64,000 nt of DNA from Candidatus Dojkabacteria bacterium (GTDB lineage Bacteria > Patescibacteriota > Dojkabacteria > SC72 > JAFGCJ01), in the NCBI GenBank assembly GCA_016932785.1, contig JAFGCJ010000003.1, forward strand, positions 104,971-168,970. The letters are read 5' to 3'. Every line of letters begins with the position of its first letter. The stretch's first letter is position 1. The notes under the pieces are model-generated. The model did no database searches. It saw nothing but the letters and a program-made list of their open reading frames with translations, and was not told the origin of the DNA. This document shows positions 2,813 to 49,971 of this stretch, in pieces. Both the position numbers and the translations under genes were made by a program.

Positions 2813-4378
2813 ATGATAAGTTGTTTAAATCACCTTATGTTTAAATCCAAACTGTTCTCAATTTTTGTTTCCCATTTGTTTATTCTCACTCTATTACTAT
2901 CTATATTCGCTCCGCAGGCGTTTGCTGCTAAGCGACAACTGTCTGAGGGATACACAATTGATGAGTACAACGTAACCAGCGGAGGAGCCATTTACATTAA
3001 TCCATCAGATATCAATACTCTTCAATTTCCAATGACAGATGGCGACTATGTTGTTTGGACCGACAGTATGGCAGGAGCTGGTGCAGACGATGATATCTAC
3101 TACCTTGATATAAGTACCTGGACTATCCACAATATATCCAACGAGTACGGTCTTGATACTGCCTTCGTAGGAGATCAACGATGGCCGTCAATATATAATG
3201 GCGTAATCGTATGGATGGATGATGCCAATGCAAGTTCAAACTTTGAAATATGGACCTTGGATCTCAATGATGTTACTCCCACTCCCGCAATGATTAGTGA
3301 TGGCAATCCAGTAAGTCAAAAAATGTTTCCTCATGTTAGCGCCAATCATGTAGTGTGGATGCAATCTTTTACATCATTCGACATTATGCTTTATGACCTT
3401 ACAACTACAGTTTCCACAAATATTACCAGCGACACAACTCAACAACTTTATCCCAAAGTTGATGGGAATTACGTCGTATGGCAGGAAAATCTTGTGAGCT
3501 CCGATATTATTCTCTACAATATTACAACATCCACAGAAACCCCGATCGTAGCTACTCCAAATAATGAATCATGGCCCTACATTAATGGAAATTCTCTCGC
3601 ATGGACCGAAAACGATGGTACAAGCGACAATATTTATTACATCGATGATGTAACGGTACCGTCACCAACCCCTGTTGCAATAGCAACAAGCTCGGAAACT
3701 GAAGCTGTGCCTTCAATTTCAGGAGATATTATAGCCTGGACTCAATGGAACTCGACAGATTCCGAATGGGACTTCTACTTCTATGATATTGCAGAAGATA
3801 CTACCGAAACGATTGATCGTTCTGCTGATAGAGGTGCAGTAACAGTTTATGGAAATATTATAGTCTGGCTTGATAGACAAGATACACCCTCAACAAACTA
3901 CGCTGATGTTCATCTGGGATTCCTTGATTGGGACGACAGCCCTCCAGTTTTCCTCAATTTACCAGGAAGTACACGACCAATAAACCTTGAAGATGATCAA
4001 GTTGTTGACCCTGGTTCGTCCTACAACATACGGGTTCGACCAGTTGATGACTTCGGAATAAGCTCCGTACGCTTTTATTTCAATGGTCAATTGATAGGTA
4101 CTGATACTTCTCCTGACGGCGAAGGCGTCTACAATGTTTCATGGGAAATTCCTAACACCTGCTCAGACATACGTGTCGAAGCTGAGGACACCGCTAATAA
4201 TGTTACTACTCTATCCAGAGGAAATATCTGTTCACTCCTTGCATCAACAGGATCACCAATAATAGTACCAGTTGCCGCAGGTGCGACTCTAGCTTTAGGA
4301 GGCGGGCTTGCTCTGTGGCTTCCTTCGGTAATATCAAGAAGACCGAAACTCGTATCAAAGATAGACAAGGAGGACTAG
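2813..4378 (+). CDS. Secreted repeat (beta-propeller-like) surface protein with a C-terminal LAxTG-type cell-wall sorting signal
   Basis: Signal peptide MFKSKLFSIFVSHLFILTLLLSIFAPQAFA/AK, so the likely true start is the internal ATG at 2837. At least 7 repeats of the pattern G(D/N)x(V/I)(V/A)W (DGDYVVWTD, NGVIVWMDD, ANHVVWMQS, DGNYVVWQEN, NGNSLAWTEN, SGDIIAWTQW, YGNIIVWLDR). The C-terminus is LASTG, a roughly 27-aa hydrophobic stretch, then RRPK. Confidence 0.75.
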   Translation: MISCLNHLMFKSKLFSIFVSHLFILTLLLSIFAPQAFAAKRQLSEGYTIDEYNVTSGGAIYINPSDINTLQFPMTDGDYVVWTDSMAGAGADDDIYYLDISTWTIHNISNEYGLDTAFVGDQRWPSIYNGVIVWMDDANASSNFEIWTLDLNDVTPTPAMISDGNPVSQKMFPHVSANHVVWMQSFTSFDIMLYDLTTTVSTNITSDTTQQLYPKVDGNYVVWQENLVSSDIILYNITTSTETPIVATPNNESWPYINGNSLAWTENDGTSDNIYYIDDVTVPSPTPVAIATSSETEAVPSISGDIIAWTQWNSTDSEWDFYFYDIAEDTTETIDRSADRGAVTVYGNIIVWLDRQDTPSTNYADVHLGFLDWDDSPPVFLNLPGSTRPINLEDDQVVDPGSSYNIRVRPVDDFGISSVRFYFNGQLIGTDTSPDGEGVYNVSWEIPNTCSDIRVEAEDTANNVTTLSRGNICSLLASTGSPIIVPVAAGATLALGGGLALWLPSVISRRPKLVSKIDKED

Positions 4379-6517: not shown

Positions 6518-7660
6518 TTAACTCAACCGCATAGGCATTATTATGTGAAGATAGCCATCATCCCCCTTAGTCTTGAACACCCCAGGGGCTGTAGCGGTAC
6601 TACCCTCAAAGACCATTGTTTCGCCATCAATACTATTAAGCATATCCGTTAGAAACTTGGCACTAAACCCTATACTAAGTGGATCACCCTCTACCTTGGC
6701 CTCAAAACTGCTTTCATTCTCACCTATTTCGACAAGCGCCGCAGATACCTTAACCTCATTCTTCTTTGGGTCAAACTCCATCACAGCTTTATTTCCAATA
6801 ACTCCTCTTGCGAAAATGTTAACAATCCTCACCGCATTCTGTACTAAGGCTGTATCCATCTCTGCCTTGACCTGATAGCCAGTAGGAATAATCTGTTTAT
6901 ACTCCGGGAATTTACCATCTATCAACCTTGAGACAAGATCAACCTCTTTATACCTGAAGATGACCTGATTTTTTTCCTTCAGGGTGTATACCTCTACCTG
7001 GTCCTTCTTTTTCTTCTCGCTCTCATCGGCTAAGTCAGCTATTATTCTGGACAGCTCCTGCATAGCTTTTGCGGGGACAAGAAGATCTGTCTTTTCCTTA
7101 ACAGCTTTCTCAAGTTCAACAAACTGCCTTGAGAGTCTAAACCCATCTACGGCAATAAATGTAAGACCAGTCGCCTCAGCCTCTATTTTAATTCCAGTAA
7201 GTACGGGCCGAGAATCATCTACGGCAGCAGCAAATGCAACTCTGTTTATGGCTCTCTCCATTTCATCAGGATCCACACTCATAAGAAGCTCACCATCCTC
7301 TACTGTAGGAACTGCCGGGAAATCGTCTGGCGGAAGGGTATTAAATTGGGCAGAGTTATTTACGGTAGTAACCTTGATCAGCTGTTTATCCAGGTTAAGA
7401 TCTACCTGCTCTGAAGGTAAAGAGTTAACGAATTCTGAAAAAGTCCTTGCAGGTATGGTTATTTTTCCTTCAGCTTTAACCTCGGTCCCGATCCATGTAT
7501 GAACTCCTATCTCAAGATCAGTTGCCGTCATTTTTAGCTTACTGTCCTCTGTCTCAAGCAATACATTGGCTAAAATTGGTAGACCAGGCTTGCTGCTTAC
7601 AAGTCTTCCAACTATAGCAAGCTGTTTCGCAAGACTAGATTGATTGCAGGATACTTGCAT
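6518..7660 (-). CDS. dnaN: DNA polymerase III beta sliding clamp
   Basis: 380 aa with the typical N-terminus (SLAKQLAIVGRLVSSKPGLPILANVLLE...KLKMTATDLEIG) and C-terminus (PMRL-type). Confidence 0.95.
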   Translation of the reverse strand: MQVSCNQSSLAKQLAIVGRLVSSKPGLPILANVLLETEDSKLKMTATDLEIGVHTWIGTEVKAEGKITIPARTFSEFVNSLPSEQVDLNLDKQLIKVTTVNNSAQFNTLPPDDFPAVPTVEDGELLMSVDPDEMERAINRVAFAAAVDDSRPVLTGIKIEAEATGLTFIAVDGFRLSRQFVELEKAVKEKTDLLVPAKAMQELSRIIADLADESEKKKKDQVEVYTLKEKNQVIFRYKEVDLVSRLIDGKFPEYKQIIPTGYQVKAEMDTALVQNAVRIVNIFARGVIGNKAVMEFDPKKNEVKVSAALVEIGENESSFEAKVEGDPLSIGFSAKFLTDMLNSIDGETMVFEGSTATAPGVFKTKGDDGYLHIIMPMRLS

Positions 7661-13389: not shown

Positions 13390-14832
13390 CTACCTTAACC
13401 CCTTAACCCTACCCTTGAATCCCTCATCCTCCTCCATCCTCTCCTCTACCCTCTCTATAGCATGTAAAACAGTAGTATGATCGCTCCGGTTTAGTTCTTT
13501 GGCGACCTGCTCTAATGGCAGTTCTAGTTCTGTCCGTAATAAATACATACATACCTGACGGGGAAGAACAATCTCGGCGGTCCTCCGTTTCCCGCGGACA
13601 TCTCTCACAGAAGCATTGAACTCTTTACATACGGCGCGGATAATTTCTCTTGGGCTTACCCTTTTCCGTTTGCTTTCTGCATCTATCTCGAGTATCTTGG
13701 CTACCTCATCTTCTGTTGGAACAACACCACCGTATTTCACGTGTGTTGCTACTCTAATCAGAGATCCTTCCAACTCGCGGATATTCTCCTCGAAAGATTT
13801 TGCGATGAAGGTTAGTAAATTCTCTGGAAGGACTATGCCCTTTTCTTCTGCTTTCTGTTTAATAATTGCGATCCGTAGCTCATAGTCAGGTTCGTTTATG
13901 TCCGCTACCATTCCGCCTCTGAAGCGTGACTTCAATCTGTCTGTCAGCCCGTCTATTTGCTCAGGCGGTCTGTCTGATGCGAGTATTATCTGTTTGTTTG
14001 CCTGATATAAAGTATTGAATGTGTGGAAAAGCTCTTTCTGGGCAGCTTCCCAGCTTGAGATGAATTGGATGTCGTCGATGATAAGGGTGTCCAGCTGTCT
14101 ATAGTTCTGTCTAAATTCAATAGTACGATCGTTCCTTATGGCCTCGACCATCTCGTTTAAAAATGTTTCACTAGGGCAGTATTGTACTTTTCGGTTGGGG
14201 TCTTTATTTAAGATTCGGTTTCCGATTGCTTGAATGAGGTGTGTCTTTCCGAGACCGACTCCTCCGTATACAAAGAATGGGTTGTATGCCCGACCTGGAT
14301 TGTCTGCGACTGCTTCAGATGCCGCGTGGGCAAGTTTATTTGAGTCACCGACTACAAAATTTTCGAATAGATAGCTTGGATTTAGTGCTCCTTTTTGCTG
14401 TGCTTCTTCAACTAGGTTCTGGTGGGTGTAGCTTATATTGAAAATTGGTGCTTCCTCAGGTGAAATCGATAGTCCCTCGTATCTGTTTTCAGTAGATGCA
14501 GGTTCTTTATAGACTCCAGCATCCTCTTCGTTTTCAACTGTGAATATTACTTCGTTGTCGGTTTTAGTTATCGATTGCAGAATAATCTTGATTAGCTTGG
14601 TGTGATTGGTGTCGAGCCATTCTCGAGCGTAGTTAGAGGGGCATGCCACAGTAGCTATGCCGTTTTCGATTTTAGAAAGATAAGTATTCTTGAACCAAGC
14701 TGAAAAATTTTGAGGTGAGACCCTGAGTTGGATTTGCTCAAGTGCTATCTTCCAGATTTCTTCGGTATTGACGGTTGGGCTACTTGTTCCTTGTTGGGCG
14801 GGTTGAGGCTCCTGGCTCATTTCTTGGTACAA
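13390..14832 (-). CDS. dnaA: Chromosomal replication initiator DnaA
   Basis: Walker A GGVGLGKTHL, DDIQF box, sensor and arginine-finger region, and C-terminal DNA-binding helix (DHTTVLHA). Confidence 0.97.
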   Translation of the reverse strand: MYQEMSQEPQPAQQGTSSPTVNTEEIWKIALEQIQLRVSPQNFSAWFKNTYLSKIENGIATVACPSNYAREWLDTNHTKLIKIILQSITKTDNEVIFTVENEEDAGVYKEPASTENRYEGLSISPEEAPIFNISYTHQNLVEEAQQKGALNPSYLFENFVVGDSNKLAHAASEAVADNPGRAYNPFFVYGGVGLGKTHLIQAIGNRILNKDPNRKVQYCPSETFLNEMVEAIRNDRTIEFRQNYRQLDTLIIDDIQFISSWEAAQKELFHTFNTLYQANKQIILASDRPPEQIDGLTDRLKSRFRGGMVADINEPDYELRIAIIKQKAEEKGIVLPENLLTFIAKSFEENIRELEGSLIRVATHVKYGGVVPTEDEVAKILEIDAESKRKRVSPREIIRAVCKEFNASVRDVRGKRRTAEIVLPRQVCMYLLRTELELPLEQVAKELNRSDHTTVLHAIERVEERMEEDEGFKGRVKGLR

Positions 14833-14960
14833 GGTATAAAAATATGATCGGTCTTTAGATTGGGCTAGTTTTTGAATGGTGATGCCAGAAATTTGAGTCG
14901 TCTTCCTTAAGTTCTGGCAGTCATTTTTTCAGAAATTCAATGTTCGGGAATCTAACACAA

Positions 14961-14969
14961 TGTGGATAA
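14961..14969. promoter_or_regulatory. Perfect DnaA box (TGTGGATAA) in the dnaA-rpmH divergent intergenic region
   Basis: Exact 9-mer about 130 nt upstream of the dnaA start. Coding strand bias switches in this intergenic region (14833-15522). Confidence 0.6.
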
Positions 14970-15184
14970 CTTTGCAAACAATACATGAAAAACCTTGTTA
15001 TTTCATTAAAATTTAATATATAGAAAAGAGTCCAGTTGTCATAGAGGACTGGGATCTGTAAAAAAGAACTAGAAGCAGTTGTAGGGTAGAGTTTAGACTG
15101 CTGCGTCTAGGTGTTTATCCCATAGTAATACAGGTGATTCCATAGTATAATTATAGATGAGCAAGAAAAACTATATGAAAGGAG

Positions 15185-15388
15185 GTGATCGAGGTGATCA
15201 CCACTTTGCTCAGGCCTGTGGGGCTGTTAAGGATCTTGAACAGGGAAGAAGGAGGACAAAAGCAAGATTACGTCTTGATCTCGGCTTGTATTCTTTTGGC
15301 ATTAGCGGCGGTTCTTTTAGTCGGCAGATATGTCGGAGAATTTCTTGTTAATCTGCTTGTTGACGTTATAAACTCCTTTGCTCCCTAG
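15185..15388 (+). CDS. Flp/Fap-type (type IVb, class III signal) pilin-like small protein
   Basis: Strong SD AAAGGAGG at 15177-15185. In-frame GTG starts occur at 15185 and 15194, and the latter has better spacing. The sequence LNREEGGQKQDYVLISACILLALAAVLLVG matches the Flp processing pattern G/XXXX(E/D)Y followed by a hydrophobic helix. Confidence 0.5.
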   Translation: MIEVITTLLRPVGLLRILNREEGGQKQDYVLISACILLALAAVLLVGRYVGEFLVNLLVDVINSFAP

Positions 15389-15522
15389 AACCATCGGCCC
15401 GGATGACCCGGCATAACGCTTTCATGCTTTGCCGGGCCATCCTGAACTTCTTACCTTCAATGACCCTCCCGATCCGTAACTCCTTGAGTATTCCTGCCCT
15501 ATTGTGATAAACTTGCGCAGCA

Positions 15523-15708
15523 ATGACAAAGAGAACATATCAACCCAAAAAAGTTAAAACACTTCGCAAGAGAGGATACCGTGCACGTGCATCAACACCT
15601 GGAGGTCGCAATGTACTTAAGCGGAGAAGAACTAAAGGAAGAAAAAAACTTACTGTTAGTGACCGGTACAGACTTATCAAGAAAACCCCAAAGTCGCGAA
15701 ACAAGTAA
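15523..15708 (+). CDS. rpmH: 50S ribosomal protein L34 with a C-terminal extension
   Basis: [45 protein letters not shown] is canonical L34. About 16 extra basic residues follow it. Confidence 0.95.
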
Positions 15709-15736
15709 GTTTCTTAATAACTGAGGAATAGAGTTA

Positions 15737-16087
15737 ATGCTCCCCAGGCAGAATCGCCTAAAAAATTCATCCGATTTTGATAAAGTCTACAAAAGTGGAA
15801 AATACGCTAAGGGCAAATACGGCAGGCTTGGTATTTATTCCCGTGGAGATGGTCTGCCAAGCAGATTTGGAGTCGTGGTTCCATCAAAATTCGGCAAAGC
15901 TGCAAAACGCAGTCGTGCCAAAAGACAGGTCAGGGAGATTTTCAAGCAATTACTCGTGCTGTCTCCGTCAGGCTTAGATATTACTTATATTGTTTGGGAT
16001 CTCGGCTTTGATTTCTCTTCGCTGGACAAAGAAATGACTGTACTTTTTAATAAATTAATGAAGCAGATCGATAAGGAGAAAAAATGA
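15737..16087 (+). CDS. rnpA: RNase P protein component
   Basis: Position after rpmH, plus basic RNR-type motifs ([15 protein letters not shown]...[12 protein letters not shown]). Confidence 0.9.
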
Positions 16088-16326
16088 TGAGGTATGTGCT
16101 TATGGGTTTCGTAAAAGTCTACCAGTTCTTTTTCTCATTTGATCACGGTATGCCGGGTAAAATGTTTCCGGGGAAAAGAGTCTGCAGATTGTACCCGAGC
16201 TGTTCGGAGTATGCTTATGAAGCTCTGAGAAAATACGGTTCTATCAAGGGGACTTTTCTTGCAGTCAAAAGAATTGTAAAATGCGGTCCGTGGACAGAGT
16301 TTGGTACTCACGATCCTGTACCTTAG
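16084..16326 (+). CDS. yidD: Membrane protein insertion efficiency factor YidD
   Basis: [37 protein letters not shown] motif. It overlaps the rnpA stop by 4 nt. Confidence 0.9.
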
Positions 16327-16365
16327 TAAAAGATAGATAAGTATCTTATTTAAATACATAAAAAC

Positions 16366-20149: not shown

Positions 20150-20388
20150 GACCGCTTGACGGGACTTGTCATCCCGAAGGTCCGAAAAGAAATCAATAGA
20201 CAACTGGTCTATTGTGAGTAGAATTCGGTGAGTTACTTTCTCAATAAAAAAAGTACCAAATTCGCAAGAGTTTGGATCAGAGTCCTTTTAGGGTAACCTG
20301 GGAGGAGAAACAAGGTGGTACCACGATTTTCAAAGAAAATCCGTCCTTGCTAAACACAAAGAGTGTGTTTGGTAAAGACGGATTTTTT
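20150..20388 (+). promoter_or_regulatory. T-box riboswitch leader of valS (transcriptional)
   Basis: T-box sequence AACAAGGTGGTACCACG at 20309-20325. Antiterminator: AAGG (20312-15)/CCTT (20345-48), 7-nt bulge TGGTACC (20316-22), upper helix ACGATTTTC/GAAAATcCGT. A mutually exclusive terminator follows. Confidence 0.8.
20336..20388 (+). terminator. Intrinsic terminator of the valS T-box leader
   Basis: AAAATCCGTC (20336-45) pairs with GACGGATTTT (20377-86). A second helical segment is AAACACA/TGTGTTT, and a T-run follows. The 5' arm overlaps the antiterminator 3' strand. Confidence 0.75.
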
Positions 20389-20408
20389 AATTTATTAATT
20401 AAATAGAA

Positions 20409-22733
20409 ATGCAAAAGAAACCGAAAAAAGAAAGTACCGGCAAAGCCGGAGATGGTGCTAAACCTGGTATAGATATTCCCAAAGCATACGATTCCAGCAA
20501 GGAAATGGAGATTTATAAGCTGTGGGAAAGATCCGGTGCCTTTAATCCTGACAATATTAAATCAAAGAAGAAACCTTTTGTTATGACTCTACCCCCTCCA
20601 AATGCTAACGGAAAACAGCATGTGGGTCACATGTGTGGGTACTCATTCCAGGACTGCATGGGACGTTATCACAGAATGAAAGGTGAGCCCACCCTACTCC
20701 TTGCTGGAAAAGACCATGCCGGTATCCAGACCGAGGCGGTGTTTACCAAGTATCTTGCTGAACAGGGAATCGACAAGTGGGAGTTGGGCCGTGATGAATT
20801 CTATAAGAGATGCTACAAGTTCTGTATCGAGAATGCCGACTACGCCAGGGAGCAGGAGAAAAGAATTGGACTGTCGGCTGATTGGTCTAGAGAGAAATTT
20901 ACTCTTGATCCGGCACTTAATAAAGTTATCTATGAAACCTTCTATAAATTGTTTGATGAGGGTTTGGTTTATCGCGGTCAGTACATCATCAACCAGTGTA
21001 CGAATTGCAGAACAGCTTTGGCTAATGTAGACACTGAACATGAGCAGAAAAAAGGAATTTTCGCGTATATAAAATACCCGGTTGTTGGTGAGAAAGATAC
21101 ATATATCACAGTTGCTACAACCCGTCCGGAGACTATGCTCGGAGATACCGCAGTTGCAGTAAATCCAAAGGATTCTAGATATAAAAAGTTTGTTGGAAAA
21201 ATGGTAGAGCTTCCTCTAACCGATCGGCAGATCCCTGTTATTGCAGATAGGAAGGTAGATAAAGATTTGGGTACAGGTGCTCTCAAAATAACTCCCGCCC
21301 ACTCTGCCATCGACTTTGAGATTGGGATTGAGCATGAATTGAAAATAGTGAATGTCATAGATGAAGAAGGGCTAATGAACGAAAATGCGCCTGAGAAGTA
21401 CCAAGGAATGAAGACATCTGAGGCAAGCAAGGCGGTGTTGGAAGATCTTGATAAGGCAGGACTTCTTGAAAAGGTTGAAGATATTACACATGAAATTCTC
21501 GTTTGTGAAAGGTGCAGGTCTGTTATTGAGCAGATTATTTCAAAACAGTGGTTTGTAAATGTTGAGTCGCTGGCGAAGAATGCAATAAAAGCCATAGACA
21601 GCGGAGAGACAACCAATGTTCCCAAGTACTTCAATCGTGTACTGAAGAACTGGCTCAAGGACATAAGGCCTTGGTGTATTTCCCGTCAGCTTTGGTGGGG
21701 TCACAGGATTCCTATTTGGTATTGTGGTGGGAAAGAGCTCTACGATTGGCTGATTGATAACCCAGGTAAGACAGCTGAGGATTATGAGAAGGCGACTGGC
21801 AACAAGGCTAAGGGTTGTGGACAGGTTATCGCCTCAGATGAGAAGCCTAAGGGGGGCTGCCCTAAATGTAAGAATGCCGAATTGGAATCTGAAGAAGACT
21901 GTATGGACACATGGTTTTCGTCTGGGCAGTGGCCTTTCAGTACATTAGGAGGTCCTGACGGAGAAGACTATAAAAAGTTTTATCCCACTGATGTTATGGA
22001 GACAATGCATGATATTCTTTTTTTCTGGGTGGCGAGGATGATGATGTTGGGAATCTATCGTACAGGCAAGGCGCCGTTTCATACGGTGTATCTCCATGGA
22101 ATGATTCTGGCACCGGATGGACGTAAGATGTCTAAATCAAAAGGAAACGTCGTTGAACCCAAGGAAATCTTTGAAAAATATGGAGCTGATGCGCTTAGGT
22201 TGTGGTATTTCTCCGATGCCCTTCCTGGTAAAAATACGCCAATTCGTCATGAAAAACTTCAGGGAAATAGGAATTTTGTTAACAAAATCTGGAATGCCAG
22301 TCGGTACATTATGTTTCAGATATCAGACTTTTCTGATGAGGAGATTCAAGAGCTCGATAAGAGTATTGGCGAGAGATTGGCGGGTTTGTCCAAATCAAAG
22401 GATAAGTGGGAAAAAGAAACTTTTAATGTCGCCGAAAAGATAACCAAGTATCTTGATAAATATCAGTTCAATCTTGCCGTGGAACTTAATCGCGAATTTT
22501 TCTGGCATAAGCTTTGTGATGAGTGGATTGAGGAGACCAAAAATCTTGTCGCAAATAAACCAGAGAACAAGATTGAAAGCTTTGCTCGGTTGATAACGGT
22601 TCTTGCGGTTATGCTTAAACTGATTCACCCTTTTGCACCGTTTATCACGGAGCAGGTGTGGCAGAATCTCAGAAATCGGGGGTTACTGTCTGGTGAATCA
22701 GAACTGCTTATGATATCGGACTGGCCAGAGTAG
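20409..22733 (+). CDS. valS: Valyl-tRNA synthetase (short form, lacks the long C-terminal coiled coil)
   Basis: PPPNANGKQHVGH (HIGH region), TTRPETMLGDTAVAVNP (ValRS signature) and KMSKSKGN. Confidence 0.95.
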   Translation: MQKKPKKESTGKAGDGAKPGIDIPKAYDSSKEMEIYKLWERSGAFNPDNIKSKKKPFVMTLPPPNANGKQHVGHMCGYSFQDCMGRYHRMKGEPTLLLAGKDHAGIQTEAVFTKYLAEQGIDKWELGRDEFYKRCYKFCIENADYAREQEKRIGLSADWSREKFTLDPALNKVIYETFYKLFDEGLVYRGQYIINQCTNCRTALANVDTEHEQKKGIFAYIKYPVVGEKDTYITVATTRPETMLGDTAVAVNPKDSRYKKFVGKMVELPLTDRQIPVIADRKVDKDLGTGALKITPAHSAIDFEIGIEHELKIVNVIDEEGLMNENAPEKYQGMKTSEASKAVLEDLDKAGLLEKVEDITHEILVCERCRSVIEQIISKQWFVNVESLAKNAIKAIDSGETTNVPKYFNRVLKNWLKDIRPWCISRQLWWGHRIPIWYCGGKELYDWLIDNPGKTAEDYEKATGNKAKGCGQVIASDEKPKGGCPKCKNAELESEEDCMDTWFSSGQWPFSTLGGPDGEDYKKFYPTDVMETMHDILFFWVARMMMLGIYRTGKAPFHTVYLHGMILAPDGRKMSKSKGNVVEPKEIFEKYGADALRLWYFSDALPGKNTPIRHEKLQGNRNFVNKIWNASRYIMFQISDFSDEEIQELDKSIGERLAGLSKSKDKWEKETFNVAEKITKYLDKYQFNLAVELNREFFWHKLCDEWIEETKNLVANKPENKIESFARLITVLAVMLKLIHPFAPFITEQVWQNLRNRGLLSGESELLMISDWPE

Positions 22734-24103: not shown

Positions 24104-26377
24104 TTAATGCGAGGGATTGAGCCTGCTCAAAGATATTCCCAGATGTTCTTCCAAATGTTCTGGAAGAATCAAAATATCTTTTTTCTCATCCCCTACTCCC
24201 AACTCATATGTCCCGCAAAGCATGCCATCAGAGAGAATTCCCCTGACTTTTGATCTTTTTATCTTGTTCTTGCCTTTTCCATCGAGTGATCTCACTGTTG
24301 ATCCGGGTAATGCGACTGGAACGACCTGTCCGACTTGTAGATTTGTCGCGGTGCAAACTATTGTGAGGACTCCCGATATCCCCGTGTCGACTTTTACGAT
24401 TTTTGCCGAGTCATCCTTCGAATGTTTTTTCAGTTCCGTGATTTTCCCTATAACTACACCTAAGTCTAGTTTAGAGAAATCGTGACCGATTGGCTCTTTG
24501 ACTACAACTGATACGAGCTCTGGGTGATCAGCTTTTTCCAGTTCCTCTGTATATTCTAGTTTTGTAAAGAGTATCTCCGGTTCTCCTAGTTTGTGTCCCG
24601 TCGGGACTTCCTCGAACTTCCATTGATCTTCGTGTTTAGAGATTGATCCTTTCTCCTGAAGCTCTTTGTTTGGGTCGTATTTCTTGGGAGTATTAAGTAT
24701 AGAGCCAATTTTGTCGGAAGTAGAAGGAACTATTGGGTCGAGAATTATCTGGAAAGTGCGGATGATCTGGATGCAATTAAAGATTGTGTTGTGAAGAAAT
24801 TCCTTGGGCTTTTGGGGTGCTGGAAAATCTTCATCTTTCCATTCGGGTGTCTCTCCCTCAAAATATGAGGTATGCTTTATTGTAATCCACGGCTTTTCCT
24901 CATTAAGGTACTTATTGGCAAAATGTCCGAGATCCAGTGCAGCCTCTGCTGCTCGAGTGAATTCTGCCTTCTCAAAGTGATCGGCTACTGACGTTAGTGC
25001 CTTTTCTATAGCTTTTTGCACCTTTGAGTCAAGTTTTCCGTCTGGGACTTTTTCATCAAAATTCTTCACTGTAAAAGTCATCACCCTGTTCACGAAGTTC
25101 CCGATGTTTGCCACTAGCTCGTTATTGTTTGCATCAATCAAATCTTTCCAGATAAAATCTTTATCGTGATTCTCGGGGGCATTTCTTGTGAAGAAGTATC
25201 GCACCAGATCAGTGTCGTAGTCATCCAGCAGCTCGTTGGCAGTTATCAGTTTCCCTCTGCTCTTTGAGAGCTTTCTCCCCCTCATGTTGAGGAATTGATT
25301 AGATGGCACATCATATGGAATTTGCAGAGGATCGGCGTTTGTCTCACCGGGCAATGCCGGTTCAAATTTCCCCTTAGTATATTTAGAATTGTATGCCATT
25401 AACATTGCAGGCCACAGGAATGTGTGGAAAGGTATGTTGTCTTTTGCAATGAAATAATAGTGTTTTGCCTCTGGGTCTTTCCAGAAGTATTCCCATTTTG
25501 CTGGATCGCCAGACTTTTCTGCCCATTCGATTGCCGCACTCAGGTATCCCATGACGGCCTCGAACCAGACATAAATGTCCTGATCTTTATATTCTTCTAT
25601 CGGAACCTTGACGCCGTAGCCCAGCTTTCGGGTAACAGGTCGTGGGCGGAGGCCTTCTTTAAGCCATTTCTTGACGACACTAATAACACTTTTTCGCCAG
25701 ATGTTCTTACGGTCTTTGACCAGTTTCCCAATATCTTTCTGAAATTTCTCTAAATCGAAATACAAAATTGTGTGATCTTTGAGGACTGGGGTTGTTCCTG
25801 TAAGTTTACTTTTGGGATCGATGAGGTCGGTTGGATCGAGAGTTCGCTCACAGCCGTCGTTGCACTGGTCTCCTCGTGCCTTTGTGTTTCCGCAGTATGG
25901 GCATGTTCCCTCTATATATCTGTCGGCAAGATATTTCTTTGCCTCTTCGTCATAATATTGCTTTACATTCTTAGGAATGATAAATCCATAGGCATACATT
26001 ACTTGAAAAAGATTTCGTGCAACAGTTTTGTGATTTTCTGTTTCAGTAGTAGTGAATAGGTCCCAGGCGCAGTTTAATTTTTTGAATGTGTCGAGCTGGG
26101 AAAGGCGGAATTTCTCTGCCGTCTCTTCGGGAGTCAGTCCCAGTTCCTCAGCCTTGATAGTTACCGGGGTCCCGTGTGCGTCGGTTCCGGAAACCATCAG
26201 AACCTCGTTACCTCTCAAGCGGTGGTATCTGGCAAAAACGTCGCAAACAACGTTCTGACCTGCAAGGTGACCTATGGATAGATCTCCGTTTGCATATGGC
26301 CATGATACTCCTATAAAAATCTTTTGAGGATTAGATGACTTCGATTTAGAATTTGTATCTGACTTATGATTTGTCAT
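24104..26377 (-). CDS. metG: Methionyl-tRNA synthetase with a C-terminal tRNA-binding (Trbp111/EMAP-like) domain
   Basis: SWPYANGDLSIGHLAG (HIGH-type), zinc knuckles CPYCGN...CNDGC and KLSKSRG (KMSKS). The C-terminal segment is OB-fold-like (GKITELKKH...KIVKVD...GILSDGMLC). Confidence 0.95.
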   Translation of the reverse strand: MTNHKSDTNSKSKSSNPQKIFIGVSWPYANGDLSIGHLAGQNVVCDVFARYHRLRGNEVLMVSGTDAHGTPVTIKAEELGLTPEETAEKFRLSQLDTFKKLNCAWDLFTTTETENHKTVARNLFQVMYAYGFIIPKNVKQYYDEEAKKYLADRYIEGTCPYCGNTKARGDQCNDGCERTLDPTDLIDPKSKLTGTTPVLKDHTILYFDLEKFQKDIGKLVKDRKNIWRKSVISVVKKWLKEGLRPRPVTRKLGYGVKVPIEEYKDQDIYVWFEAVMGYLSAAIEWAEKSGDPAKWEYFWKDPEAKHYYFIAKDNIPFHTFLWPAMLMAYNSKYTKGKFEPALPGETNADPLQIPYDVPSNQFLNMRGRKLSKSRGKLITANELLDDYDTDLVRYFFTRNAPENHDKDFIWKDLIDANNNELVANIGNFVNRVMTFTVKNFDEKVPDGKLDSKVQKAIEKALTSVADHFEKAEFTRAAEAALDLGHFANKYLNEEKPWITIKHTSYFEGETPEWKDEDFPAPQKPKEFLHNTIFNCIQIIRTFQIILDPIVPSTSDKIGSILNTPKKYDPNKELQEKGSISKHEDQWKFEEVPTGHKLGEPEILFTKLEYTEELEKADHPELVSVVVKEPIGHDFSKLDLGVVIGKITELKKHSKDDSAKIVKVDTGISGVLTIVCTATNLQVGQVVPVALPGSTVRSLDGKGKNKIKRSKVRGILSDGMLCGTYELGVGDEKKDILILPEHLEEHLGISLSRLNPSH

Positions 26378-26427
26378 GATTATTGATTTTATCTTAAATT
26401 ATCTTCCTAGCGCTATAGGCAGTGATT

Positions 26428-26452
26428 AAAAAACCTCCCGTAAGGGAGGTTT
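26428..26452 (-). terminator. Intrinsic terminator inside the metG 5' leader
   Basis: The minus strand reads AAACCTCCC-TTAC-GGGAGGTTT followed by TTT (six T in total), ending 51 nt upstream of the metG ATG. No minus-strand gene lies upstream for it to terminate. Confidence 0.75.
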
Positions 26453-26479
26453 CGTCGGTTGGTTCCTAAATTGAATATA

Positions 26480-26554
26480 TCAACCCACAGGCCTCCCAAG
26501 GAGGTTGGACATCATCATTTCCATCATGCTGTTGGTCAATTTTCTTATTGTCAT
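26480..26554 (-). CDS. Candidate Met-rich leader peptide (24 codons) of the metG attenuator
   Basis: Hand translation of the minus strand gives ATG ACA ATA AGA AAA TTG ACC AAC AGC ATG ATG GAA ATG ATG ATG TCC AAC CTC CTT GGG AGG CCT GTG GGT TGA, which is MTIRKLTNSMMEMMMSNLLGRPVG*. There is no SD. The ATG lies 9 nt after the -10 element, so the mRNA would be nearly leaderless. Confidence 0.45.
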   Translation of the reverse strand: MTIRKLTNSMMEMMMSNLLGRPVG

Positions 26555-26563
26555 TATGGTTGG

Positions 26564-26592
26564 ATTCTATTTGATCAAGATACTAAAGTCAA
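26564..26592 (-). promoter_or_regulatory. Sigma70-like promoter TTGACT-17 nt-TAGAAT driving the metG leader
   Basis: On the minus strand, TTGACT is at 26592-26587 and TAGAAT at 26569-26564 with an exact 17-nt spacer. Confidence 0.45.
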
Positions 26593-26672
26593 ATTTGGCT
26601 TATATTTTATTCTTTACCTCACTAGTTGTATATCCTATAATATTTCCATATCTTATATTTATTCAATAAAAA

Positions 26673-27290
26673 ATGAGTGGTGGCCATCTGGACCAAGATG
26701 TATTCAGATTGGATTACATGCCGTCGATTGATGAGCTGACCTCTGTCGGCGATGTTCCTGTCATGTTCACCTTTCCGGAGCCCTCGGGCATTTCGGGAAT
26801 CGAGGATGACGGCATGGCAAGTCTCTGGTGCTGTAATATGGGAGGAGTACTTGTTGCTATGAGGCACTATAGAGGGGGAGATAAAAGATATGTTGATACA
26901 GTTTTCCTTTTTCACAGGGAATATGGATGGGAATGGAACAATCCCGGGTGGACCCTTCCTACTGATTTAGAGACTTTTGGATCGTGGAATACTTCCAGTT
27001 GTGAAATTGAGCTTCCTCAGTTCTGGGAAGGGGTGGACTTGAACGGTTTCACGTTGGGTGATCATCCTTTTTATTCTTATGCTAAGTCAATTTATATTGA
27101 TAAGTTAGGACTTGGTGCGCATCTTAGGTGGATGAGTGAGTTGAGTCGCTTAGATAGATTTTTTGCTGAATCTGACGGAGAAACTATGCAGTTACTACAA
27201 TCCATTTTGGTAGGATATGGGGAACTTGCTAGCCTGTATTTGAAGAAGAGATCACTTGCAAGAATGAAACTAGAAATCTCTACGAATTAG
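26673..27290 (+). CDS. Hypothetical protein (orphan), first gene of an apparent operon with two ABC-2 permeases
   Basis: 205-aa ORF with no Walker motifs and no recognised family. Confidence 0.55.
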   Translation: MSGGHLDQDVFRLDYMPSIDELTSVGDVPVMFTFPEPSGISGIEDDGMASLWCCNMGGVLVAMRHYRGGDKRYVDTVFLFHREYGWEWNNPGWTLPTDLETFGSWNTSSCEIELPQFWEGVDLNGFTLGDHPFYSYAKSIYIDKLGLGAHLRWMSELSRLDRFFAESDGETMQLLQSILVGYGELASLYLKKRSLARMKLEISTN

Positions 27291-34232: not shown

Positions 34233-35009
34233 TTGGAGTTGTATAAATATTCACAAAACAACCTGAAAGACAAAAACCTTGTACGAACGTTAGTCTCTGA
34301 ATCGTCCATATCTTCAGAGGATATCGTGCTTGATATCGGTGCTGGTGACGGCATTATTACCCAGGAGCTTGTGAAGGTCTGCAAAAAAGTCATTGCAATA
34401 GAGATAGACCCCATCCTCTGTAAGAAGCTGAGAAAAAAGTTTCGTCAATATGATAACGTCAGAATTGTTGAGACCGACTTTCTGGGCTACAAATTGCCAG
34501 AGCGCCTCTTTAAAGTTTTCTCAAATATCCCCTACTTTATCACCTCAGATATTGTTAGAAAGCTTACAGGTGAAGGATCGAAGATGACCGAGGCTTATGT
34601 CGTTATGCAGAAAGAAGCTGCAGATAAATTTTGCGGTAAACCAAAAGAATGCTTGTTCTCGATATTGATAAAGCCATTTTATGAGTTGAGACAGACTTAC
34701 GATTTCAAGAAGACAGACTTTTATCCAGTTCCGTCCGTTGAAAGTGTTCTAGTCAGAATAAGTAGGAGAAATAGCCCTCTGATTAATTTTGACGAAATAG
34801 ATAACTTTAGACAGTTTATTGGGTTTTGTTTCAAGAGAACTTTTGGTCCTCTTAGAAAAAGCCTTAAAAAGTTTCTTACCTATAATCAGATCAAGAAACT
34901 GTATGATTACCATGGAATAAAGAGAGATGCCATTCCCACAGATCTTACTATTGAGCAATGGCTTGGTTTATTTAGATTCTGGAGGAGTGTGGAATGCAAC
35001 GGCAGTTAA
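34233..35009 (+). CDS. Erm-like 23S rRNA (adenine-N6)-methyltransferase
   Basis: Collinear with ErmC-type proteins: YSQNNL, DIGAGDGIIT, AIEIDPILC, FSNIPYFITSDIVRKL (Asp where KsgA has Pro), PVPSVESVLVRISRR and C-terminal LTIEQWLGLF. TTG start. Confidence 0.75.
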   Translation: MELYKYSQNNLKDKNLVRTLVSESSISSEDIVLDIGAGDGIITQELVKVCKKVIAIEIDPILCKKLRKKFRQYDNVRIVETDFLGYKLPERLFKVFSNIPYFITSDIVRKLTGEGSKMTEAYVVMQKEAADKFCGKPKECLFSILIKPFYELRQTYDFKKTDFYPVPSVESVLVRISRRNSPLINFDEIDNFRQFIGFCFKRTFGPLRKSLKKFLTYNQIKKLYDYHGIKRDAIPTDLTIEQWLGLFRFWRSVECNGS

Positions 35010-37445: not shown

Positions 37446-37867
37446 TGGTGGAGACGGGGGGAATCGAACCCCCGTCCAGAAGATTCATTCCGTAACATCA
37501 TTACAAGCGTATCTGATTTAGTATACGACATGCATCGTAAAAATCAGCAAAATAAGATGCAGCGTTGACGATTTAAGTTTCGTAGATTAGGCTCGTCAAG
37601 TTACCTAAGCTATATATCCTGAATGGTTAAAAGCTATGGCGGCTCTATCAGGAAAGAGCCATCCGAGCCTGCAGTCGCTAATTATGCAACTGCCATGTTG
37701 TAAGCAAATCCTTGCTGTAGAGACTGGAAACCAGCCTTTACTGAAGCAACGAATGATTCAACACGTTTTGCAAGTGAGTTGACACTTGTTTTGTGCGTTT
37801 TTACAGAGCTCGCATCTGGCTTGATGCTATGGAAATCACAGTCTTCCGTCGAATCCTGTACATCCCC
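37446..37867 (-). ncRNA. ssrA: tmRNA (ssrA), one-piece, CCA encoded
   Basis: 5' GGGGATGTACAGGATTCGACGG and 3' GGACGGGGGTTCGATTCCCCCCGTCTCCACCA. The acceptor pairs with a G3:U. The tag frame ends ...GFAYNMAVA-TAA (stop at 37684-37682). A TATAAT lies about 10 nt upstream of the 5' end. Confidence 0.9.
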
Positions 37868-40637: not shown

Positions 40638-41753
40638 TTAGCTGTTTTTGAGATAGTCCTTCAGCTGTTTTTCCATTGAAGCAATCTTTAGTTTCTTGAG
40701 AGCCTTTGCTTCGATCTGACGAATTCTTTCTCTGGTGACCCCGAATTCTCTACCGACTTCTTCAAGGGTGCGGGTTACTCCATCCTGAAGCCCGAATCTT
40801 AGTTCAAGAACTCTTTTTTCTCTGTCTTGGAGGCCTGAAAGAATCTGCTGCATTTGGCTTCTAAGAAAAGCGTTGGTAGCTATAGTCTCTGGAGAAGCGG
40901 CCTTTGTGTCCGGAATGATGTCGGATAATTCACTATCCTGCTCTTTGCCGATTTGTGCAGAGAGGGATTTCGGATGTTGAGATATTTTCAGTATTTCGTT
41001 GACTTTTTCTACCTCGATCTTCATAGCATCTGCTATCTCTTCTGGTTTCGGTTTTCTTCCAAGTTTTGTAGCAAGTTGAGCAGATATCTTGCTAAGTTTA
41101 TTTATTGTCTCGTGCATATGGACAGGAATACGTATTGTGCGGGCCTGGTCCGCTATTGATCTGGTGATGGCCTGTCGTATCCACCATGTTGCATATGTCG
41201 AAAACTTGAAACCTCTTTTGTAATCAAATTTCTGTACAGCCCTCATTAGACCGATGTTTCCCTCCTGAATGAGGTCCAGTAACTGAAGTCCCCTGTTTGC
41301 ATATTTTTTTGCTATGCTGACAACAAGACGGAGGTTAGCTGTAACAAGTAGTTGTCCTGCTTCCTTTTCTCCCTTCTCTATTCTCTTGGCAAGAATGACC
41401 TCCTCCTCTGCCGTTAGGAGCGGTGTCTTTCCTATCTCTTGAAGATATGATCTGATGGCATCTGTTGTAATGTTGGACTGAATGGATTTGAGTATTCTAA
41501 TCTTGTGTTCGAGTGTCATCTCCTCTTCGTCAATCTCGTCTCCATCAGTACTTGACTCTTCAAGAACTTCGATCCCGTTGTTTTGAAGTGTTATAAAGAT
41601 TTCGTCTAGTAAATCAAGATGGTTCTCGATATGTGGAAATTCGTACAAAATATCTTCCTGGGTAAGGAAACCCTGCTCCTTCCCTTTCTTGACTAGCTGT
41701 TTGATTGTTTTTTGGATTTTTTCTTTTCTGGCAGAAACTTTGGTCTTTGCCAT
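40638..41753 (-). CDS. rpoD: Primary RNA polymerase sigma factor (sigma-70)
   Basis: Region 2 [27 protein letters not shown] and region 4 [23 protein letters not shown]. Confidence 0.95.
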
Positions 41754-48704: not shown

Positions 48705-49166
48705 TTATCTAACTAGACTTAAGGGTTTATATATGGAAATAAATAGTGCCAAAGTTGTGATGATCGATATTGTTTGAATAAAATAGGCAAGAGTTTTTGA
48801 TTTAAAGTATAGTCTTCCGCCAACAATTATTGCAAATAGCTGGACGATAAGATTAGTAAGGACAATTAATATAACGTTTGTACTGTTGATAAATCTCTTT
48901 GACGGGGATTGATAGTAGTAAAAAAGTGCTATAGAAGAGGGTATCTTCGTAATATTATTATAGAAATACACTGCGGTTATTATCGAAAGGGAGGTATTCA
49001 GAAATATAGCAAGCCACAGAACTGGAGATCTCCAGTAGCTAAATTGATCCATTATTCTGGAAATTCTCCTATACCTAAGGGAAACACGTTGTAGAAACGG
49101 ACTCCCTTTGTACTTAATTCCAAGGCCTAATTGTGACGGTTTTTCTTTAATCTGTTTTTTCTTCAT
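48705..49166 (-). CDS. Hypothetical membrane protein
   Basis: 153-aa ORF with 4 hydrophobic helices. It overlaps the rsmA 3' end by 20 nt. Confidence 0.45.
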   Translation of the reverse strand: MKKKQIKEKPSQLGLGIKYKGSPFLQRVSLRYRRISRIMDQFSYWRSPVLWLAIFLNTSLSIITAVYFYNNITKIPSSIALFYYYQSPSKRFINSTNVILIVLTNLIVQLFAIIVGGRLYFKSKTLAYFIQTISIITTLALFISIYKPLSLVR

Positions 49167-49971
49167 TATTCAGGACGTTATTATACAACATAAATACTTT
49201 TTGAAATTCTTCCAGAGAGAGTTCCTCGGGTCTCTTTTTTCGGACTATCTTGAAATTATTCTCTTTAAGGCATTGCTTTAGACGAAAATGGTACTTTTTT
49301 GGAGTAATCCTTAAAAGATTATTTTGGATAGTTTTTCGTTGAGATTGAAAGCAATCCTTAATAAAAGCAGACAAATCTGTGCCATCTTTATGCGGATTTT
49401 TAAGTATAAATTTTATGACAGCACCGTCCACCTTGGGAACCGGACTGAAAGATTTTGCAGAAACCGTAAATTCATACCTGCAAGTGGAGTAAATACTTGC
49501 GAAAAGTGATAAAAATGTTGATTTCGGGGTCTTAGCCGTATAGTCATCGGCAACTTCCTTCTGAACCAGAAAAGTGAGAGAAACCGGGTGAGGCAGATTT
49601 TCTTTTCTAGGAAAAGTAATAAATTTGGCTATTATTTTTTTTGAAATATTGTAAGGGAGTGAACCTACTACGAAAAAATCATTCTTGAAATTATCAGCAG
49701 GGTTATAATTCAAGATATCCATATTTACAACTTTGAAATTCTGATGCGATGTTAACTCAAGTTTTTGCTTTAGTAAAAGGGCTAGTCTGGGATCGCGTTC
49801 TACGCACACAAGTGATTGAACGAGGTTTATAAGTTCAAAGGTAAGAGCTCCCTTCCCTGGTCCTATCTCAAGCCAGTCTTGATCAGAAGACGGGTCTGCT
49901 ATGGAAACCAATTTTTGTATTATTGCTTTATCTTTTAAAAAGTTTTGACCAAGATATTTTAGAGCTTTCAT
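49147..49971 (-). CDS. rsmA: 16S rRNA (adenine1518/1519-N6)-dimethyltransferase RsmA/KsgA
   Basis: LGQNFLKD, EIGPGKGALT and GSLPYNISKKI. Confidence 0.9.
   Translation of the reverse strand: MKALKYLGQNFLKDKAIIQKLVSIADPSSDQDWLEIGPGKGALTFELINLVQSLVCVERDPRLALLLKQKLELTSHQNFKVVNMDILNYNPADNFKNDFFVVGSLPYNISKKIIAKFITFPRKENLPHPVSLTFLVQKEVADDYTAKTPKSTFLSLFASIYSTCRYEFTVSAKSFSPVPKVDGAVIKFILKNPHKDGTDLSAFIKDCFQSQRKTIQNNLLRITPKKYHFRLKQCLKENNFKIVRKKRPEELSLEEFQKVFMLYNNVLNNEEKTD

Follow-up and report, generated by a model that had tools for sequence, protein, structure and literature searches.

Why should the methionyl-tRNA synthetase gene metG of a candidate bacterial phylum be preceded by its own promoter, a very short methionine-rich open reading frame (ORF) and an intrinsic terminator, all packed into the gap that separates it from its neighbor? 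The question arises in a 64,000-nt stretch of contig JAFGCJ010000003.1 of a Candidatus Dojkabacteria bacterium (the window, by which we mean that whole stretch, and to whose positions all coordinates refer), where leader and metG are both read on the minus strand and the gap between metG and a divergent plus-strand ORF (26673-27290) is just 295 nt. Judging from the sequence and from folding models, and with a probability that we put at about three in four, the leader is a ribosome-mediated transcription attenuator that tunes metG expression to the supply of charged elongator Met-tRNA, and it would work essentially as a first-pass annotation of this DNA had described.

The promoter, the 24-codon ORF, the positions of its AUG codons, the pairing regions 1 to 3, the 9-bp hairpin and the 51-nt spacing given in that annotation all proved correct to the base (Table 1). 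The promoter is the top-scoring minus-strand site between the divergent gene and metG, and an RpoD-type sigma factor is encoded elsewhere in the window at 40638-41753. With a start codon so close to the -10 element the leader ORF is effectively leaderless, and its AUG codons stand at positions 10, 11, 13, 14 and 15. An intrinsic terminator lies between the leader ORF and metG, with its U run stopping at 26428, 51 nt ahead of the metG ATG at 26377. A repeat search recovers the two terminator arms, the complementarities between regions 2 and 3 and between regions 1 and 4, and the direct repeat formed by regions 1 and 3; the hairpin motif CCTCCCNNNNGGGAGG is expected 0.09 times per window and is found once. 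The best homologues of the metG product carry the name methionine--tRNA ligase, the nearest database protein being just 66% identical. By its MetRS homologues the window falls within the Patescibacteria (candidate phyla radiation), with Dojkabacteria (WS6) as the closest group.

Table 1. Elements of the metG leader in the window, followed by the leader peptides of five related metG loci; percentages are identities of the methionyl-tRNA synthetase (MetRS) to the window enzyme, and every leader peptide ends at a stop codon.
Feature	Position	Strand	Remarks
Sigma-70-type promoter TTGACT-17-TAGAAT	26564..26592 (-35, 26592-26587; -10, 26569-26564)	-	10/12 consensus matches
Leader ORF, 24 codons plus UGA, MTIRKLTNSMMEMMMSNLLGRPVG	26480..26554	-	Starts 9 nt past the -10 element
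Regulatory Met-codon run AUG AUG GAA AUG AUG AUG	26510..26527	-	Leader codons 10-15
Region 1, CCUCC, 5' arm of 1:2 hairpin	26500..26504	-	3' end 12 nt past first base of last Met codon
Region 2, GGGAGG	26492..26497	-	Partner is region 1 (1:2 hairpin) or region 3 (antiterminator outer helix)
Region 2b, UGUGGGUUG, 5' arm of antiterminator inner helix	26481..26489	-	Covers last sense codon and first two UGA bases; helix covaries over six leaders
Region 3a, CAACCGACG, 3' arm of antiterminator inner helix	26453..26461	-	From antiterminator fold and pairing counts
Region 3, CCUCCC	26444..26449	-	Terminator 5' arm
Region 4	26431..26439	-	Terminator 3' arm
Intrinsic terminator, AAACCUCCC-UUAC-GGGAGGUUU plus U run	26428..26452 (hairpin 26452-26431)	-	9-bp stem, U6 tail, -13.7 kcal/mol
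metG, methionine--tRNA ligase, 757 aa, regulated gene	24104..26377	-	NCBIfam TIGR00398, 452 bits against a cutoff of 336
L007 leader			MetRS P0002, 66%; peptide MTIKVTTNSMMMSMMMHLQGEDVG
L011 leader			MetRS P0006, 56%; peptide (M)KELRNSNQNSMSMMVMCSFHMGD
L013 leader			MetRS P0017, 48%; peptide (M)SNSNTSSQAMSMMMSSPHRG
L014 leader			MetRS P0010, 50%; peptide MKTLNNSKLMMVMMMQNL
L015 leader			MetRS P0011, 49%, NCBI GCA_054922035.1; peptide MKILNQPKKMMSMMMHISKGRL

The strongest evidence comes from relatives. Among the metG loci retrieved from 17 related genomes, five further Dojkabacteria-like loci, whose MetRS proteins are 47-66% identical to that of the window, share the same layout, so that the Met-run ORF, the paired repeats and the terminator are all conserved where the annotation had asked for them. 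As in the trp, his and pheST attenuators, a short leader ORF stands between promoter and regulated gene in the window and in each of these relatives, in which it has 18-24 codons with 4-6 AUG at codons 10-17; in all six leaders the cognate codons are clustered, with 4-6 AUG in 5-7 consecutive codons. The leader peptides resemble one another in the Met run only, and the residues on either side vary. Moreover the run itself is not a constant word: it reads MMEMMM in the window and MMMSMMM, MSMMVM, MSMMM, MMVMMM and MMSMMM in the others, and this shifting of the interrupting residue argues that Met codons, and not a fixed RNA sequence, are what selection maintains. Such runs are rare. A scan of both strands of 166 kb (the window and the 17 loci) for at least four ATG per seven in-frame codons finds only the six metG leaders and one conserved ARMMMM motif, which lies inside a large class-I aminoacyl-tRNA synthetase (aaRS) gene beside metG in three loci; by the same measure a shuffled window yields 0.17 runs.

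The leader is positioned for translation from its first nucleotides. At all six loci the best upstream sigma-70-like site, with 10-12 consensus matches out of 12, is separated from the leader start codon by 8-11 nt, which indicates leaderless initiation. The start codon that comes first downstream of this promoter also shares the frame of the AUG run, an agreement with a chance of (1/3)^6 if the loci are independent; the other two frames of the run read UGA or GAU. The first-pass annotation had listed the missing Shine-Dalgarno (SD) sequence as a caveat, and this can be dropped. An SD-like motif at -22 to -4 precedes just two of the 43 long ORFs in the window, and a -10-like hexamer lies a few bases ahead of the ATG in several genes (e.g. 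23509 and 48705-49166), so that, from sequence, SD-independent and leaderless initiation appears to be the rule in this genome. The GGAGG copies of the leader were also considered as SD sequences and rejected, given a genome without SD use and no conserved start codon after either copy.

The spacing of codons and pairing regions is likewise maintained. In the six leaders region 1 ends 9-12 nt past the first base of the last Met codon, region 2 begins 3-4 nt beyond region 1, and the stop codon falls between -6 and +10 nt relative to the end of region 2. With ribosome footprints of the usual size, a ribosome stalled on the last Met codon would thus reach with its leading edge past the end of region 1, and a ribosome terminating at the stop codon would hide region 2, region 2b, or both. 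A stall on the AUG run would accordingly leave the 5' arm of the antiterminator free, and a ribosome on the stop codon would cover that same arm.

Could the Met-rich peptide act through its own sequence instead? The nascent chain, perhaps together with methionine or S-adenosylmethionine, could stall the ribosome in the fashion of TnaC or SpeFL, in which case the signal would not be tRNA-Met charging. The evidence for ORF, terminator and antiterminator applies to such an arrest peptide too, and conservation within the peptide is confined to the Met run. Known arrest peptides, however, need a defined and conserved sequence around the stall site, whereas here the residues flanking the run vary freely. 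The regulated gene also encodes the charging enzyme, which by analogy with pheST fits sensing at the codon level, and a stall triggered by abundant methionine would increase MetRS just when the cell needs it least. We regard an arrest peptide as very improbable.

The attenuator reading predicts mutually exclusive folds, and these are found. Full-length folding gives the 1:2 hairpin together with the terminator in 6/6 leaders; in the window the 1:2 hairpin has -5.7 kcal/mol, and the 141-nt leader folds with z = -2.4. To represent a stalled ribosome, the RNA was masked to 12 nt past the first base of the last Met codon and ended at region 3. Under these conditions, with region 4 not yet present, every one of the six leaders makes an extended antiterminator that consists of a 2:3 helix of 5-6 bp, an internal loop of 1-3 nt and a stacked inner helix of 6-9 bp, at -12 to -20 kcal/mol compared with -9.4 to -13.9 for the terminator hairpins. 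The inner helix adjoins the 2:3 pairing and lies over the stop codon, and it disposes of an earlier reservation that the 2:3 pairing had only 6 bp: in the window the extended antiterminator reaches -18.9 kcal/mol, the terminator hairpin alone -13.7. The antiterminator excludes the terminator by taking its 5' arm, although the alignment behind this statement is fitted by hand and equilibrium favors the terminator. When the ribosome is instead placed on the stop codon, the terminator alone is left in the fold.

Covariation supports these helices. RNAalifold on a MAFFT alignment gave only a weak consensus of nested 1:4 and 2:3 pairings; because the MAFFT alignments left the helices out of register, an alignment of the six leaders was built by hand, N-padded, and was left unchanged by MAFFT, and the pairing counts refer to it. 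Pairing in the 1:2 hairpin stands at 96.7%, and two of its pairs show compensation: L015 has U-A in place of C-G, and L013 has C-G in place of U-A. In the antiterminator 89% of the cells are paired, with two-sided changes at five pairs (seven cells); among 500 column shuffles a single one does as well, and controls in which the sequences were slid are 40-55% paired. With regions 2 and 3 held fixed and the interior shuffled, the added stability of the inner helix has a Fisher combined p = 0.001. Core changes in region 2 are compatible with both of its partners, and the losses of 2:3 pairing seen in some leaders are confined to its outermost positions. In L013, for example, GGAGG has become GGGGG, for which region 1 compensates as CCCCC while region 3 still pairs through G-U. 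The 1:2, 2:3 and 3:4 scheme put forward in the first-pass annotation is thus supported by the recurrence of the layout in five divergent loci, by conserved geometry and by compensatory changes.

The same data bear on the simplest alternative, namely that an AT-rich intergenic sequence and a stray hairpin fell into this arrangement by chance and have no function. Single-sequence folding would permit it, the z-score being just -2.4 and the 1:2 stem short, but six lineages carry the full feature set in the same geometry together with covariation, and chance is effectively refuted.

A more serious alternative is an RNA switch that works without translation, in which the leader would bind a ligand, MetRS or, in the fashion of a T-box, a tRNA, and in which the AUG repeats would serve as an RNA motif, for instance by base-pairing to the anticodon (CAU) of tRNA-Met. 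In favor of this, terminator and antiterminator are genuine, AUG is complementary to that anticodon, and a T-box-like leader precedes valS in the same genome. Furthermore, nucleotide identity between the window and L007 is up to 78%, so for that pair conservation of RNA and conservation of codons are hard to separate. Against this, the leader has no match in Rfam, whether to the T-box or to any other family. At the gathering thresholds an Rfam scan of the window reports a transfer-messenger RNA (tmRNA) and one tRNA and no leader family, and at E up to 10 a scan of 26300-26750 returns only terminator look-alikes (Phe_leader, istR and RNAI) and no T-box. The best match, to Phe_leader (RF01859), scores 22.1 bits against a gathering threshold of 55 and aligns the terminator alone; the leader falls outside that family and likewise outside the T-box family (RF00230), which calls for a T-box sequence and a Stem I specifier, and the T-box sequence of valS (GGUGGUACCACG) is missing from it. 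At about 125 nt the leader is also short. A start codon fixed at 8-11 nt from the -10 element, a frame shared with the AUG run and a stop codon beside region 2 would all be needless in an untranslated RNA, and the AUG positions move between lineages while their count is preserved. Such a switch is in our view unlikely, if the least unlikely of the alternatives.

The genomic context separates the element from its neighbors and ties it to metG. Upstream neighbors vary and include a divergent hypothetical gene, genes for an ABC-2 permease or a metallophosphatase, and co-directional genes; the upstream gene is divergent at four of the six loci. The terminator, which is invariant across the six leaders, would thus not be serving an upstream gene, and a reading as the terminator of such a gene was rejected on the same ground, the gene being divergent in the window and at three other loci. 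From the sequences, the element appears to travel with metG and not with a neighboring gene. One could still suppose that promoter and terminator belong to a separate small gene or small RNA that happens to lie here, metG being transcribed from a weak promoter of its own downstream. The terminator is indeed strong, and the 50-75 nt between it and metG are AT-rich with -10-like hexamers, such as a TAAAAT seen by eye 8 nt ahead of the window metG ATG and, in L007, a TTGATT-17-TAATAT with 8/12 matches by hand count. But none of the six loci has a promoter site with at least 9/12 matches in this interval, the element accompanies metG in every case despite the differing neighbors, the peptide is unconserved outside the Met run, and the alternative pairing scheme would be purposeless in a free-standing gene. 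Relatives without the element also use a homologous promoter directly before metG: in L006, L008 and L009 the sequence TTGAAT-17-TAGAAT (…AAATAGAATC…) lies 24-36 nt from the metG ATG and can be aligned with the window promoter. An independent gene is therefore slightly less probable again than the RNA switch.

The L006, L008 and L009 subclade has lost, or never had, the attenuator of about 160 nt, and constitutes a natural 'deletion series'. The relatives' MetRS proteins P0002, P0009-P0011, P0015, P0017 and P0018 are about 935-950 aa in length with an extra C-terminal B3_4 (PheT-like) domain, and the 757-aa window enzyme has the tRNA_bind domain only; leaders accompany both architectures. We also note that L007 contains a perfect 22-nt inverted repeat (TAGGTCCGACCTACGGTAGGTC / GACCTACCGTAGGTCGGACCTA) at 2761-2782 and 3018-3039. 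The repeat flanks the promoter, the leader and the first metG codons, with its second arm within the metG coding sequence; each arm is partly palindromic, and the repeat is absent from the window. It could be a repetitive extragenic palindromic (REP)-like element, a mobile element or an invertible segment.

Returning to the leader as an attenuator of metG, several observations weigh against it. The weakest point of the model is that at equilibrium, with region 1 masked and region 4 present, the terminator is kept in five of the six leaders. If the leader does switch, the equilibrium preference for the terminator means that the read-through switch must be kinetic. In the trp attenuator, too, the terminator is more stable than the antiterminator and control is kinetic; the energetics being alike, we do not take the equilibrium result as a refutation. 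The 1:2 hairpin has little stability (-2.4 to -9.8 kcal/mol over six leaders). The outer 2:3 helix is without any double change, and because both hairpins are built on CCUCC/GGAGG its complementarity is automatic; the inner helix, which does covary, is compatible with both states. Pair counts are inflated by an alignment fitted by hand to the model, and there are only six sequences, of which the window, L007 and L015 are clearly homologous at the nucleotide level. Two leaders begin with poorer leaderless start codons, UUG in L011 and GUG in L013. Leaderless initiation moreover needs formylmethionyl-tRNA made by MetRS itself, and a severe shortage might thus suppress translation of the sensor. 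The leader is absent from 11 of the relatives, including the sister subclade of L006, L008 and L009. Finally, the host organism is uncultured, and the reading stands on sequence and predicted folds.

The 11 relatives without the leader also include the reference WS6 genome GW2011_GWF2_39_15, and MetRS scans of public genome and metagenome contig collections turned up only relatives of about 50% identity in which it is absent; a scan of viral contigs for the Met-run and hairpin pattern gave no matches. In a neighbor-joining tree of MetRS, leaders are found on both main branches, which suggests an old element that has repeatedly been lost.

A plausible scenario for its action can be assembled from the elements described, whose conservation, geometry and alternative folds are observed, and from which we infer translation of the leader ORF, stalling, transcription-translation coupling and a regulatory response. 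Transcription would start about 7 nt past the -10 element, so that the mRNA begins almost at the leader AUG and is translated without an SD sequence. When Met-tRNA(Met) is plentiful, the ribosome would pass the five AUG codons to the UGA and cover regions 2 and 2b; region 3 would then pair with region 4, the terminator would form, and polymerase would halt 51 nt before metG. When Met-tRNA(Met) is scarce, through little methionine or little MetRS activity, the ribosome would stall in the AUG run, and with the last AUG in its A site its front edge would lie over region 1 and leave region 2 free. The inner helix 2b:3a would form once 3a has been made and would keep region 2 beside region 3, so that the 2:3 helix precedes synthesis of region 4. 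The terminator would be pre-empted, metG transcribed and more MetRS produced, the outcome being a homeostatic feedback on the very enzyme that charges the sensed tRNA.

How does such a leader relate to known systems? A close one is E. coli pheST with its leader peptide gene pheM, in which a cognate-codon leader likewise precedes an aaRS gene, terminator and antiterminator alternate, and charged tRNA exerts negative feedback. The pheST leader differs in using Phe codons, in its gamma-proteobacterial host and in an SD-led leader ORF, whereas the metG leader has Met codons, belongs to a lineage of the candidate phyla radiation (CPR) and has a leaderless ORF, and the two are without homology of sequence or model, as judged with Phe_leader as a related family of Phe-codon leaders. 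The trp and his attenuators (Trp_leader, His_leader) share the 1:2, 2:3 and 3:4 scheme, with codons upstream of or within region 1 and a stop beside region 2, but control biosynthetic operons, have longer and stronger 1:2 hairpins and are not leaderless, and the metG leader has no Rfam match to them. T-boxes on aaRS genes (e.g. metS in Firmicutes) have the same consequence, in that low cognate charging leads to antitermination and more synthetase; in contrast to the metG leader, a T-box recognizes the uncharged tRNA itself, by way of a specifier codon and the conserved T-box sequence, and needs no ribosome to do so. A further parallel is provided by the leaderless polycysteine short ORFs of mycobacteria, at which stalling reportedly remodels downstream RNA and acts on translation (Canestrari et al., bioRxiv 10.1101/834739). 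There too a single codon is repeated in a sensory ORF that is short and leaderless (10.1101/834739), though it is cysteine that is sensed and cysteine metabolism that is controlled, whereas the metG leader has an intrinsic terminator at its end and an aaRS gene as its target. An output like theirs, through a sequestered ribosome-binding site, does not fit here, with the terminator 51 nt before metG and metG without an SD sequence.

The first-pass annotation had held that leader-peptide attenuation of an aaRS gene is established only for pheST. This stands for experimentally established cases but not for predicted ones, since comparative genomics has identified candidate classical attenuators on Streptomyces trpS and leuS (Seliverstov et al. 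2005, PMC1262725). These resemble the metG leader in having a cognate-codon ORF, an antiterminator and a terminator before an aaRS gene outside the proteobacteria, and differ in amino acid (Trp, Leu) and phylum (PMC1262725); conserved RNA structures for methionine genes are not reported in that study (PMC1262725). The further assertion that no Met-codon attenuator of metG had been described agrees with our search. In open-access papers and preprints we found no Met-codon leader peptide, no metG attenuator, and no leader-peptide attenuation or T-box in CPR/Patescibacteria, a negative that is suggestive only. We know of no leader-peptide attenuator described for methionine.

Within the class of ribosome-mediated attenuators the Met codons, the metG gene, the CPR lineage and the leaderless ORF are new; the principle itself is known. 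We lean, somewhat more than evenly, toward a broader claim: that no methionine-specific leader-peptide transcription attenuator, and no classical attenuator of any kind in the CPR, had been recognized before this one, which would be an ancestral, leaderless and SD-independent sensor of Met-tRNA charging on metG across Dojkabacteria-like lineages, in which an inner 'clamp' helix pre-positions the antiterminator. If so, the mechanism would gain a further amino acid and would reach a large branch of the bacteria that is uncultured and poorly understood, and tight transcription-translation coupling would be implied in ultra-small bacteria that lack SD sequences. Since initiation and elongation on the sensor both need the product of MetRS, the leader could answer initiator and elongator Met-tRNA in opposite ways. 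To our knowledge gene regulation, SD-less initiation and transcription-translation coupling are essentially unstudied in the CPR, and the element, compact (about 170 nt) and transplantable, lends itself to tests of these questions.

The window holds a second leader of interest, about 6 kb from that of metG. The gene valS (20409-22733), the other aaRS gene of the window and identified by NCBIfam, encodes a 774-aa synthetase and is preceded at 20187-20392 on the plus strand by a T-box-like leader that matches the Rfam T-box model with 25.8 bits (gathering threshold 93; E = 5.7e-4). The canonical T-box sequence AAGGUGGUACCACG is present, as is a long terminator hairpin that ends in a U tail, and a 306-nt region around the leader folds at z = -5.5, while the model alignment misses most of Stem I. 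It may be a divergent or reduced T-box below the Rfam threshold. Given this terminator-bearing leader, aaRS attenuation by intrinsic terminators is probably used in this organism, and reduced genomes of this kind would control their aaRS genes by at least two different attenuation devices, metG having the Met leader and valS the T-box-like one.

Among other features, the window encodes RpoB, RpoC, DnaA and DnaN in addition to the RpoD-type sigma factor and tmRNA. On the minus strand dnaA (13390-14832) is followed by 1.5 kb without long ORFs (14833-16365), dnaN is located at 6518-7660, also on the minus strand, and GC skew changes sign near 14 kb; the dnaA region (13390-16365) is likely the replication origin region. 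Two paralogous KsgA/RrnaAD-type rRNA adenine dimethylase genes are present in this reduced genome, at 34233-35009 on the plus strand and at 49147-49971 on the minus strand. The tmRNA gene at 37446-37867 (minus strand, 98.6 bits) has the predicted tag peptide AGFQSLQQGFAYNMAVA.

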